A stretch of 64,000 nucleotides of DNA from Candidatus Pacearchaeota archaeon. GTDB lineage: Archaea > Nanobdellota > Nanobdellia > Pacearchaeales > GW2011-AR1. Both the position numbers and the translations under genes were made by a program. Under the pieces are notes generated by a model. The model was given only the letters and a program-made list of their open reading frames with translations, made no database searches and had not been told where the DNA came from. The stretch spans positions 12,049-76,048 of the forward strand of contig JACPLT010000006.1 of assembly GCA_016186365.1 (NCBI GenBank), read 5' to 3'. This document shows, piece by piece, positions 56,110 to 59,001 of the stretch (positions are counted from its first letter, which is position 1; every line of letters begins with the position of its first letter).

Positions 56110-59001
56110 TTATTCCAGGTAGATGGCAGGCTTTCCTGGCTTGGTTTTTCCTGACTTATTTTCAGGGTCATATTTGTTTTTATCTGAAACTGAAAATACC
56201 TCTAAATCCAGATTTAGCGAGGATTTTATGCTGTTTTTTGCTTCTAGGTATATTTCAAGTTCTTTTGGAATCGTATAAAGATAAACTTTTTTTGCTTCTT
56301 TACCCTGTTTTTCTTTTATTATCCTAGTTATATTCTTTATGTCCTCTATTGTCTTTTTTATTATTCCTTCCTGCTTTTCCAAATTTTCATTTATTTTGCT
56401 TTCATCTGCTTTTGGCCAGCTTTCATGAGAGATAAAACTCTTATTTCCTAATTTTTCCCATAGCTCTTCTGTTATGTGCGGGCAGAAAGGATGAACCATT
56501 TTTAAGAAACTTTCCAAATCTTTTTTGCTTACCTCTTTTTCTGCCTCTAATTCTTCAAATAGGGTTCTTATTTTTATTATGGCAAGATTATACCTAAAAT
56601 TTTCAATATCTTCTGTTATCTCTTTTATTGCCTTGTTTATTTTGCTTTCTGCTTTTTCTGAAGATTTTCCTTTTTTTACATTAGTGAAGAAAGAAAACAT
56701 TTTTTTTACCAGTCTTAAGCTGCCTTCTATGCCTTTTTCATCCCATTGAGTATCTTTGTCAGGAGAGGCTTGAGACATCAAAAATAATCTTGCAGTGTCA
56801 ATCCCGTATTTTTCAGAAACTTCTTCAGGGAGAATCACATTGCCTTTTGATTTTGACATTTTTTCTCCGTCTGTTCCGTGAAGCATTCCTTGATTAAATA
56901 GTTTTATGAACGGCTCGCTTATTTTAATAAATTTTAAATCTCTTAGGGCTTTTGTGAAAAATCTGGAGTAAATTAGGTGCATGCAGGCGTGTTCTGCTCC
57001 TCCTATATACTGATCAACTGGCATCCAGTATTCTACTTTTTTGCTGTCAAACGGCATTTTATTATTCTTATTATCTGTATATCTTAAAAAATACCAGGAA
57101 GAATCAAAAAAAGTGTCCATGGTATCTGTCTCTCTTCTTGCTTTTCCAGTGCATTTAGGACATTTTGTATTTACAAAACTTTTGTTTGTTGCCAATGGGT
57201 TTCCCTCTCCGAATTTTACATCTTCAGGGAGCTCAACCGGTAAATCTTTTTCTTTCACAGGCACAATTCCGCACTTTTCGCAATAAACTACTGGGATGGG
57301 AGTTCCCCAGTATCTCTGTCTTGAAATGAGCCAGTCTCTAAGTTTATAATTGACTGTTTTTCTGCCTAATTTTTTGCCTTCCAAGAAGTTAGTTATCTCT
57401 TGTTTTGCTTTTTCATTTTCAATCCCTGAAAATTTTCCAGAATTGACAAGTATTCCTTTTTCTGTATATGCTTCGTCTTTCTCAAGATATCGCAATAGCC
57501 CTAAGATGTTATAATAAGGAGAAACTTCCTTTATTGCTTCATCAGCTGAAAGCCAAATTGCATCATGTTTATTCTTCTCTTCTTCTGAAATATTCTTTTG
57601 CTTTTCTTCAATTAATTCCAGCAATACTGGCTGGTCTAATCTATGCCTCAAAACTTTTTTATTAGGCGCATAGAAATGAGATTCAATTTCTCCTCCAAGC
57701 TTTTTTATGAATTTAACTTTATACCCTGTTTCTTCTAAAACTTCTCTTTCTGCGGCTTTGGTTAAATCTTCGTTAGTTTCAATGCCCCCTATTACCGGAG
57801 AAATCCAGCTGTCTGTTTTCCATTTTACCATTAAAAATTTGTTGTCTTTTTTTCTGTGAACAATTGCAGATATTGTTTTTCTGAATTCTTCATTCTCTTT
57901 TTTCTCTCCATAAACAGGCATAATTACCTCTTTTATTGGAATGTTATATTTTTTTGCGAATTCTAAATCTCTCTGATCATGTGCAGGAACAGCCATTACC
58001 ATTCCACTTCCATAATCTGCAACAACAAAATTTCCTGCATAAACAGGTATTTTTTCTTCTGTGACAGGATTAACCGCATAGCTTCCTGTGAAAACTCCCT
58101 GCTTGTCCATTTCTTCAAGCTCTTTTTCTGAAACTGATTTTAGCTTTTTGATAAAAGCTTCTACCTCTTTTTTTTGTTTTTCTGTTACTAAATCAAAAAG
58201 TTTGGGATGCTGGGCAGATATTACCATGAATGTAACTCCGTATATTGTATCTGGTCTGGTGGTAAATATCGACCATTTTTTTTCATTTATCTGGAAGTCT
58301 ATCTCTGTTCCGTGAGATTTTCCTATCCAGTTTTCCTGCATTGTTTTTATTCTGTTAGGCCATTTCAAATTGGGAATTTCTTTTAATAACTCTTCTGCAT
58401 ATTCTGTTGTTTTTATGAACCATTGTTCAAGGTGTTTTATTTCTACTTCAGTATCTTCGTGCCTCCAGCATTTTCCTCCTACTACCTGCTCATTAGCGAG
58501 AACTGTCTGGCATTTGCTGCAGAAATTTACAGCAGACTTTTTTCTGTAAACTAGCCCCTTTTCCATGAATTTTAAGAAAAAATACTGGTTCCATTTATAA
58601 TATTCTGGATTGCAGGTGATGACAATTCTGTCCCAGTCATAGCTTAACCCGAGATTTTTCATCTGTTTTATATAATTTTTTATTGCTGTTTCTGTAAACT
58701 TTTTAGGATGGGCTTTTTGTTTTATTGCTGCGTTTTCAGCAGGCAGACCAAATGCGTCAAATCCCATAGGATAGAGAACATTAAAATTGTTCATTCTTTT
58801 GAATCTTGAAAAAATATCTCCAATGGTATAATTCAGAGCGTGACCCATATGCAACCCAGAAGCTGAAGGATAAGGAAACATCTCCAAGCAGTAAAACTTT
58901 TTCTTCTTTGAATTTTCTTTTGCAGAAAAAGCTTTCTTATTTTCCCATTTTTTCTGCCATTTTTCTTCTATCTTTTTGAAATTTATCTCTTCTTCTGCCA
59001 T
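56110..59001 (-). CDS. leuS: leucyl-tRNA synthetase, bacterial type, with inserted Nudix domain
   Basis: [76 protein letters not shown]. Nudix box [23 protein letters not shown] at aa 405-427. Confidence 0.9.
   Translation of the reverse strand: [963 protein letters not shown]

Follow-up and report, generated by a model that had tools for sequence, protein, structure and literature searches.

A Nudix Domain Inside a Leucyl-tRNA Synthetase

A bacterial-type leucyl-tRNA synthetase (LeuRS) encoded in a 64,000-nucleotide stretch of DNA from Candidatus Pacearchaeota archaeon almost certainly carries a real, folded Nudix hydrolase domain inserted into its CP1 editing domain. The stretch, hereafter called the window, comprises positions 12,049 to 76,048 of contig JACPLT010000006.1 (assembly GCA_016186365.1). 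The inserted module occupies a variable CP1 loop, which we call site A, of a 963-residue protein (Table 1). A sequence-only reading of the window had proposed such an in-frame Nudix domain, at about residues 361–511 of a single polypeptide, within the editing region of a bacterial-type LeuRS. Pfam profiles, alignment with the Thermus thermophilus LeuRS 1H3N, AlphaFold2 models, and Foldseek comparisons all agree with that proposal, and the positions that it gave for the LeuRS landmarks and the Nudix box were recovered when all of them were re-derived.

The Nudix profile PF00293 matches residues 374–491 with E = 2.5e-13 (50.6 bits; cutoff 21.1) and cuts in two the match of the LeuRS editing-domain profile PF13603 (E = 1e-61). 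Within the insert lies a 23-residue Nudix box of the form GX5EX7REUXEEXGU, in which all catalytic residues are present and the final position is Y instead of I, L, or V. Translated in all six frames, the 64-kb window yields this strict pattern a single time. The insert begins ∼18 residues past the editing Asp. In the alignment with 1H3N, residues 5–360 of the window LeuRS correspond to residues 3–362 of the Thermus enzyme and residues 509–730 to residues 374–601, so that ∼148 residues stand where Thermus has ∼11. Sister LeuRSs that lack the insert have 17–26 residues at site A. The region is therefore longer than normal, as the proposal would have it.

Structure prediction gives the insert a fold of its own. 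Modeled alone by AlphaFold2, with an alignment of its relatives, it reaches a predicted local distance difference test (pLDDT) of 96.3 and a predicted template-modeling score of 0.89, with the strands and helices in the classic Nudix order. The box residues REVLEE are borne on a helix spanning positions 53–65 of the insert, and the overall architecture is the alpha/beta/alpha Nudix fold. The full-length model (pLDDT 90.5) shows matching secondary structure at residues 360–505, where block confidences are mostly ∼92–95. When searched with Foldseek, the insert model matches many Nudix hydrolases with probability 1.00 and template-modeling (TM) scores of 0.64–0.79, at sequence identities of 14–24%. 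Thus, the box, the profile score, and the fold all place the insert in the Nudix superfamily (PF00293), and the significant profile match, the split editing model, and the separate, confident fold each bear out the proposal.

It is necessary to ask whether the arrangement could be an accident of assembly, an objection that the sequence-only reading had itself raised. We see only a negligible chance that the insert arose as a chimera of assembly, that it is a pseudogene, or that a mobile element recently brought it in. Nothing pointing that way was found for the window, although some CP1 and Nudix fragments in the databases are frameshift artefacts of other assemblies (P0030; P and L numbers are our own handles for relatives). 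Against an artefact stand the open frame and the recurrence of the same architecture in dozens of independent assemblies and at least 55 GTDB species. Relatives at 59–75% core identity come from many independent assemblies labeled Pacearchaeota, Woesearchaeota, or Nanoarchaeota, and PF00293 is found at the equivalent place in ∼40 of the best 120 hits. GC content shows no break around the insert (0.31–0.37 throughout), and the repeats that flank it amount to no more than short AT-rich matches such as chance would produce; a recent mobile-element insertion was rejected on these two grounds. Together, the independent relatives, the even GC content, and the lack of significant flanking repeats exclude a chimera or a recent mobile insertion for practical purposes. 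The window also looks archaeal in what it encodes: a tRNA that seems to contain an intron, an archaeal-type ProRS, a class I LysRS-like gene, and GatB/E.

Assembly errors do matter for some relatives. We considered whether short database proteins consisting of a CP1 fragment and a Nudix domain represent split genes, and rejected this reading for P0030. Its Nudix-bearing leuS, on a metagenome contig (L093:3426-6263), consists of four consecutive open reading frames (ORFs) of 206, 254, 54, and 400 residues, a fragmentation probably caused by frameshifts in that assembly. In view of this case, short CP1 and Nudix proteins should be checked before being taken for split genes, and we counted CP1-like Nudix mini-proteins only where a complete leuS adjoins.

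The Host Synthetase

Apart from the insert, the LeuRS parts of the 963-residue protein look functional, as judged from their motifs. The reading frame contains 0 stops and 0 frameshifts, and its product is identical to NCBI MBI2629710.1, which is annotated as a "class I tRNA ligase family protein" of Candidatus Pacearchaeota archaeon and is encoded on a contig of 81 kb. The NCBIfam model TIGR00396 (leuS_bact) matches in two stretches with 948.5 bits against a cutoff of 548.4, and the full-length AlphaFold2 model resembles bacterial LeuRS structures in Foldseek (TM 0.73–0.80). Across 71 relatives there is no variation in the HIGH, KMSKS, T-rich, and Asp motifs. With the profile score above its cutoff, HMGH and KMSKS in place, and a CP1 domain that has both its T-rich region and its Asp, the protein belongs to the bacterial-type LeuRSs. 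The last part of CP1 runs back into the catalytic core at RDW, and a further 16-residue LeuRS landmark occupies residues 555–570.

One canonical element appears to be missing. Only the residues HGTDGE stand between FNQGML and KMSKS (56863-56898, minus strand), and the gap from FNQGM to KMSKS is just 8 residues, so the leucine-specific domain is apparently absent. Thermus residues ∼602–624 are unmatched in the window LeuRS, and the T. thermophilus enzyme has ∼50 more residues before KMSKS. The leucine-specific domain varies among LeuRSs, and its absence is no bar to membership.

Table 1. The Nudix-bearing leuS gene and its parts, in window positions and in residues of the encoded protein
Feature	Residues	Position	Strand	Basis
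Complete bacterial-type leucyl-tRNA synthetase gene with insert	963 in all	56110..59001	-	Pfam, NCBIfam, 1H3N alignment, Foldseek
N-terminal half of catalytic (Rossmann) core	1–222	58336..59001	-	Pfam and motif positions
HMGH	51–54	58840-58851	-	Motif position
CP1 editing domain, first part	223–360	57922..58335	-	PF13603, residues 223–370 matching profile positions 1–150 of 185
T-rich motif TTRPDT, intact	247–252	58246-58263	-	Motif position
Editing Asp motif AVPAHDQRD, intact	337–345	57967-57993	-	Motif position
Inserted Nudix hydrolase module (site A)	361–511	57469..57921	-	Pfam, AlphaFold2, Foldseek
Nudix box	405–427	57721..57789	-	Pattern match
CP1 editing domain, last part	512–552	57346..57468	-	Pfam, 1H3N alignment
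Second half of catalytic core	553–784	56650..57345	-	1H3N alignment and motifs
KMSKS	714–718	56848-56862	-	Motif position
Anticodon-binding domain (PF08264) and C-terminal domain	785–902 (PF08264)	56113..56649	-	Pfam

A Module Family Tied to LeuRS

The insert is not a singular graft. An exhaustive HMMER search with the insert against 1.84 billion protein cluster representatives returned 412 matches at E ≤ 1e-3, of which 122 reach E ≤ 1e-10. The best 150 representatives comprise 105 with LeuRS segments, 32 short proteins that consist of Nudix only, and 13 others. When GTDB species representatives were scanned with the pattern RE[VI]LEETGY, the module proved to lie inside leuS in at least 55 of the best 80 loci, mostly from the candidate phyla radiation (CPR, or Patescibacteria) and DPANN. 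The bacterial labels of these leuS-borne modules include Saccharibacteria, Berkelbacteria, Paceibacterota/Parcubacteria, Taylorbacteria, Moraniibacteria, Peribacteria, Adlerbacteria, and Buchananbacteria; others are labeled Woesearchaeota, and a few come from metagenome-assembled genomes (MAGs) labeled Bacilli. Some labels, Gammaproteobacteria and Methanosarcinales among them, probably cannot be trusted. As classified here, the module is a distinct Nudix family, almost always tied to LeuRS, with the signature R14, W34, [FY][YF]AxxKxxNR, and W123.

Comparison of 286 modules with the window sequence located the insertion sites, given here in window LeuRS numbering. Site A, after residue ∼355–360, holds 183 modules. 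Site B1, after residue ∼205–215 and directly before the WPxxIKxMQxNWIG linker, holds ∼12, and site B2, after residue ∼235–240 and between the first two CP1 strands, holds ∼9. All three are loops or hinges of CP1, and together they account for ∼204 of 206 placed modules; lone modules follow residues ∼570 and ∼610, so that the relatives use at least five sites around CP1. Two or three modules share one LeuRS in P0071, P0072, P0079, P0084, P0143, and L025. Modules that share a protein are not each other's closest relatives, and one subtype can occur at different sites in different proteins, as the 65% identity between the module at site B1 of P0071 and that at site A of L019 shows. These two observations point to old paralogous subtypes that would have relocated between sites. 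Two divergent Nudix types, 54–70% and 33–41% identical to the window's, are found at site A of closely related LeuRSs. Thus, of the single graft envisaged by the sequence-only reading, the insertion at site A stands, whereas the family to which it belongs is mobile, multi-site, and multi-copy, with neighboring-gene forms as well.

These neighboring-gene forms are free-standing homologues encoded beside leuS. In two archaeal MAGs (P0006 and P0010), free homologues 50–67% identical to inserted modules lie 10 and 43 nt downstream of an insert-less bacterial-type leuS of 885–887 residues; a third contig of the same synteny has an IS66 transposase where leuS would stand. On a bacterial contig, a 169-residue Nudix homologue ends 5 nt before an 811-residue leuS, and in a Saccharibacteria MAG just 4 nt separate the end of a 214-residue Nudix ORF from a following leuS that has a site-A module of its own. 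Two more bacterial contigs (P0015 and L039) encode a CP1-like domain with a site-A Nudix as a separate protein of 281–286 residues adjoining a complete, insert-less leuS. In the L039 protein the CP1 catalytic Asp is lost and the Nudix box is intact. The free homologue P0005 has no adjoining leuS, and for P0009 the contig, at 2.4 kb, is too short for adjacency to be judged. P0181 (393 residues) is a free fusion of a Ser_hydrolase domain with a Nudix domain.

Outside LeuRS, an archaeal-type ProRS (P0168, 643 residues) carries a Nudix domain of the same family between its anticodon-binding and C-terminal domains. Two further candidates for ProRS–Nudix fusions, P0160 and P0145, were rejected because they share with P0168 just the Nudix domain and short flanks. 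The ProRS association therefore rests on one representative.

Conservation and Dispensability

The modules have kept their predicted active site. All seven Nudix-box residues (G45, E51, R59, E60, E63, E64, and G66, in insert numbering) are retained in 229 of 269 modules. The metal-binding glutamates are closer still to invariance: E60 is found in 267, E63 in 265, and E64 in all 269. Since these glutamates are so consistently kept, the modules are probably active. Residues specific to the family are also conserved, namely R14 (251/269), K88 (264/269), R92 (240/269), and W123 (260/269). Among relatives, insert identity follows core identity; in P0216, for example, the core is 71% and the insert 69% identical to the window's.

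At the same time, the module is not required by its host. In a neighbor-joining tree of the LeuRS core, insert-bearing and insert-less enzymes are intermixed, and several close sister pairs differ in the insert (P0216/P0255, P0233/P0316, P0220/P0334, and P0217/P0269). The hydrolytic editing motifs of CP1 are intact in 144 of 155 Nudix-bearing LeuRSs (93%) and in 92 of 96 without Nudix. Because these motifs persist with or without Nudix, the module would add to hydrolytic editing and not replace it. Judging from these comparisons, the module is under selection yet dispensable for LeuRS.

Other Domains Inserted in Related LeuRSs

Nudix is not the only domain found in these enzymes. At CP1 site B2, after window residue 238, some DPANN and CPR LeuRSs, with or without Nudix, have an alpha/beta "Ser_hydrolase" domain (PF06821/PF00561) whose GHSLG nucleophile motif is intact (P0231, residues 249–411; P0263, residues 250–400; P0086, residues 245–461; and the protein of L025:678-5882, residues 621–751). 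A HAD_2 phosphatase domain with an intact DFDGV motif is inserted near residue ∼620 in P0073 (residues 640–795) and in the L025 protein (residues 1199–1352); the two modules are near-identical despite their distant hosts. A Ham1/ITPase domain (E = 3e-58) and an NTP_transf_5 domain are also inserted in LeuRSs (P0099, residues 984–1167; P0198, residues 815–940). The most elaborate case, the LeuRS ORF of L025 (Taylorbacteria), runs for 1,735 codons from stop to stop and contains three Nudix domains, one alpha/beta-hydrolase, and one HAD domain.

In eight close DPANN relatives (P0237, P0266, P0267, P0291, P0298, P0305, P0327, and P0331), site A is filled instead by a domain of ∼100–115 residues with conserved "WY..S.G" and "EQLDF" motifs; no Pfam match was found for this ∼105-residue domain. 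In a Woesearchaeota MAG, a free HAD_2 gene (L090:6430-6927, minus strand) abuts an insert-less leuS at its 3′ end, with a slight overlap, an arrangement that recalls the inserted HAD_2 modules of other LeuRSs but may be coincidence.

A Proposed Role in Nucleotide Clean-Up

Our best explanation, which with its mechanism included we rate slightly below an even chance, starts from a working LeuRS of a Pacearchaeota (DPANN) archaeon in which a self-folding Nudix domain of 150 residues has taken the place of a short, variable surface loop of CP1. The domain would be an accessory pyrophosphohydrolase, either tethered to LeuRS or encoded beside leuS. Its Mg2+-binding REx2EE glutamates would cleave a nucleoside-5′-polyphosphate compound near the synthetase. 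Our best guesses for this compound are adenine dinucleoside polyphosphates (ApnN) or other adenylyl-transfer by-products of Leu-AMP, or else noncanonical (d)NTPs that compete for the ATP site. The outcome would be a local nucleotide "house-cleaning," and in relatives that also have HAD-phosphatase, alpha/beta-hydrolase, or Ham1 modules a multi-step clean-up may be possible. The parts of this explanation differ in strength. That the Nudix domain is a catalytically active accessory enzyme with a functional link to LeuRS seems to us probable; the specific substrate class, a small molecule of the ApnN or (d)NTP type, is a tentative choice.

Five considerations favor a small-molecule nucleoside polyphosphate: the structural neighbors of the insert, its aromatic residues, its acidity, the fact that aminoacyl-tRNA synthetases (aaRSs) synthesize diadenosine tetraphosphate (Ap4A), and the co-insertion of Ham1 and HAD domains, which are classic nucleotide house-cleaning families. 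The nearest structures in Foldseek include Ap6A and Ap4A hydrolases, the MutT1/Rv2985 diadenosine polyphosphatase, NudB, RppH, and YmfB, a set that leans toward small molecules. The modules' acidity, with a median isoelectric point of 5.7 and a net charge of −4, leans the same way. The aromatics stand 16–17 residues after the box: among 273 aligned modules, position 443 is F in 189 and Y in 72, and position 444 is Y or F in 141 and 119, respectively. In diadenosine polyphosphate (ApnA) hydrolases, the Tyr that confers specificity sits downstream of the Nudix motif in an "X-loop" (PMC5389931), and 443/444 may be the equivalent site. Finally, aaRSs are a main source of Ap4A, which they make from aminoacyl-adenylate and ATP (PMC10148737).

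Several observations weigh against this explanation. LeuRS falls in the group of aaRSs with "low" Ap4A synthesis (PMC10148737); one would have expected LysRS or PheRS as the host. No assignment of a substrate by homology rose above a curated cutoff in NCBIfam, in phmmer and profile searches of PDB sequences, or in Foldseek, all of which gave generic Nudix similarity at identities of 14–24%. Against the RppH models (PRK00714) the insert scores 31.4 bits where NF001937 demands 139, with other models lower still; against NudB (NF006961) it scores 33.7 bits where the cutoff is 103; and its PDB matches to Ap4A hydrolases (E of 1e-3 to 1e-5) lie mostly over the box, which does not place it in the ApnA hydrolase family. 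Membership of the insert in the ApnA, RppH, NudB, or MutT subfamilies can thus not be demonstrated. Approximately 15% of modules have changed box residues (E51 to Q or D; R59 to A, M, K, or T). No adjacent Nudix gene was found beside leuS in the insert-less sisters P0255 and P0316, so the Nudix function must be dispensable there or supplied from elsewhere. And the occupation of sites A and B2 by unrelated domains, namely the ∼105-residue domain and the alpha/beta-hydrolase, fits mere structural permissiveness.

It is useful to contrast nucleotide clean-up with its main rival, a role at the ends of tRNA or other RNA. CP1 docks the tRNA CCA end, and RppH and NudC act on 5′-triphosphates or on NAD/Np4 caps. 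The Nudix domain might thus use CP1 as a delivery platform and remove a pyrophosphate-linked group from tRNA(Leu), such as a 5′-triphosphate, an NAD/Np4 cap, or a 3′-pyrophosphate lesion, which would mean repair or maturation in place of nucleotide clean-up. The placement of nearly every module in a CP1 loop or hinge (∼204/206) is in keeping with such a role, as are the separate CP1-like Nudix proteins adjoining leuS (P0015, L039), the presence of RppH among the best NCBIfam (sub-threshold) and Foldseek matches, and the co-occurrence of HAD and nucleotidyltransferase modules in relatives. However, the modules are acidic and have no added RNA-binding extension, the RppH scores fall far under their cutoffs (31 versus 139 bits), and the ProRS-borne member (P0168) lies outside any editing domain. 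Co-insertion of Ham1/ITPase suggests free nucleotides. On balance we consider a role at RNA ends unlikely. We would also bet against the view that Nudix is a hitch-hiker in a permissive loop, a general MutT-like house-cleaner with no mechanistic tie to leucylation, carried because CP1 loops tolerate insertions and because an essential gene guarantees expression in tiny genomes. Such a passenger would explain why sites A and B2 are hot spots for unrelated domains, why presence and absence are patchy between sister LeuRSs, and why other generic house-cleaning families (Ham1, HAD) are likewise inserted. It also has a precedent in the CAAD domain, whose recurrent insertions in cyanobacterial class I aaRSs have little catalytic effect (PMC4893482). 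A pure scaffold model does not predict, however, that free members of the family should stand next to leuS, whether before or after it, in no fewer than five independent contexts, nor does it account for a family that is overwhelmingly LeuRS-associated (105 of the best 150 representatives).

Two further readings bear on the catalytic site itself, and we give each very little credence. In one, which takes up the substrate named first by the sequence-only reading (ahead of Ap4A-type by-products and NDP-X signaling molecules), the Nudix domain hydrolyzes misactivated aminoacyl-adenylates and so constitutes an added site of pre-transfer editing. Its location inside the editing domain suits this idea, as does the binding of adenylate-like ligands in CP1 pockets, known from T. 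thermophilus LeuRS structures such as 1OBH. The chemistry does not suit it: an aminoacyl-AMP is a carboxylic–phosphoric mixed anhydride without a P–O–P bond, and with no pyrophosphate bond to cleave it is a poor substrate for canonical Nudix chemistry. Since CP1's own hydrolytic site is in addition intact in 93% of Nudix-bearing LeuRSs, such editing is unlikely; sister LeuRSs do without the module, and the same family occurs in ProRS and as free proteins. In the other reading, the Nudix fold is noncatalytic and has a structural or regulatory part to play or senses a ligand. The altered modules (∼15%), often second tandem copies with E51 changed to Q and R59 to A, M, or T, would fit, and nonenzymatic proteins with a Nudix fold are known (PMC5389931). 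Yet the window's box is perfect, and E60, E63, and E64 persist in 267, 265, and 269 of 269 modules.

A more ambitious version, which we regard as a long shot, would make the LeuRS of CPR and DPANN the platform of a hitherto unrecognized, CP1-centered "damage-control" machine. Nudix domains of up to three paralogous types, alpha/beta-hydrolases, and HAD modules, in or beside leuS, would then act jointly, their target being either the acceptor end of tRNA or lesions of the adenylate type or antimetabolites that CP1 holds. If true, such a platform would go beyond hydrolytic editing and make up a class of its own, and a new one, of cis-acting quality control or repair of tRNA ends.

Relation to Known Systems

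The closest evolutionary precedent for the inserted Nudix domain is, by analogy, the CAAD domain of cyanobacterial class I aaRSs (ValRS, IleRS, LeuRS, GluRS, and others; PMC4893482). There, too, a domain with stand-alone homologues has been inserted repeatedly at alternative positions with a patchy distribution, and the host enzyme stays active (PMC4893482). The differences are substantial. CAAD is a noncatalytic membrane anchor confined to cyanobacteria, whereas the window insert is predicted to be a soluble hydrolase with an intact active site. Unlike CAAD, the Nudix modules are centered on the CP1 of LeuRS in CPR and DPANN, are often multi-copy, and have gene-neighbor forms. Other aaRS accessory domains (AlaX; YbaK/ProX; the N-acetyltransferase of NCBIfam NF040702, "IleRS, N-acetyltransferase domain-containing") also add a catalytic module and exist in fused and stand-alone forms. 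Those known modules deacylate mischarged tRNA or acetylate, whereas this one belongs to a pyrophosphohydrolase family.

Relative to canonical bacterial-type LeuRSs (T. thermophilus 1H3N/2BYT; Escherichia coli 4AQ7/4ARC), the window enzyme shares HIGH, KMSKS, a CP1 with T-rich and Asp motifs, and the anticodon-binding and C-terminal domains. It differs in having an enzyme domain of 150 residues in place of a CP1 loop of ∼11, in lacking the leucine-specific domain, and in its archaeal host. Relative to characterized Nudix hydrolases, the module shares the fold and the complete box (T. thermophilus Ndx1 Ap6A hydrolase 1VC8, Aquifex aeolicus Ap4A hydrolase 3I7U, Mycobacterium smegmatis MutT1 5GG6, Mycobacterium tuberculosis Rv2985 9CXX, and E. 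coli RppH 4S2W and NudB 2O1C). It is set apart from them by low identity (14–24%), by a signature of its own, and by being embedded in an aaRS or encoded beside one.

The sequence-only reading knew of no described LeuRS with this architecture. We likewise found no description of a LeuRS–Nudix protein in the full-text literature searched, which leaves out most subscription journals; in sequence databases, however, the architecture is common, and it is visible in public annotations. Among the relatives listed, NCBI mostly names insert-bearing proteins "class I tRNA ligase family protein" and insert-less ones "leucine--tRNA ligase," a split that is due to the Nudix insert and that bears on completeness estimates for these lineages.

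The finding may be relevant for several questions. aaRS editing domains are textbook translational quality control, and here a second, chemically different hydrolase sits inside CP1 with catalytic residues conserved across much of the CPR and DPANN radiations. This offers a handle on which aminoacylation by-products or lesions demand a tethered clean-up enzyme. It also provides handles on how ultra-small symbionts fit accessory enzymes into essential genes, and on how domains move between insertion sites and neighboring-gene forms.

Other Features of the Window

Several other genes of the window merit mention. A 295-residue ORF with a P-loop (55284-56171, minus strand) has a weak Zot-like match (PF05707, E = 1.7e-4) and shares 62 nt with the 3′ end of leuS. 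Near leuS on the other side, 59945-60964 (plus strand) encodes a 339-residue class I LysRS-like protein (PF01921, E = 5e-9, profile positions 20–320 of 360) that has an MSKS-type motif and apparently lacks the C-terminal anticodon-binding part. A short AlaRS of 591 residues (51479-53254, plus strand) comprises the catalytic domain and tRNA_SAD without the usual C-terminal region, and a similar AlaRS of 584 residues is found near leuS of the relative L091. At 35873-36009 (plus strand), a 137-nt tRNA match in Rfam, with none in ARAGORN, is consistent with an archaeal tRNA that contains an intron. A DnaB-type replicative helicase (PF03796/PF00772; 29405-31276, minus strand) and a 744-residue protein with a eukaryotic-type protein kinase domain (1207-3441, plus strand) are encoded on this otherwise archaeal-looking contig.

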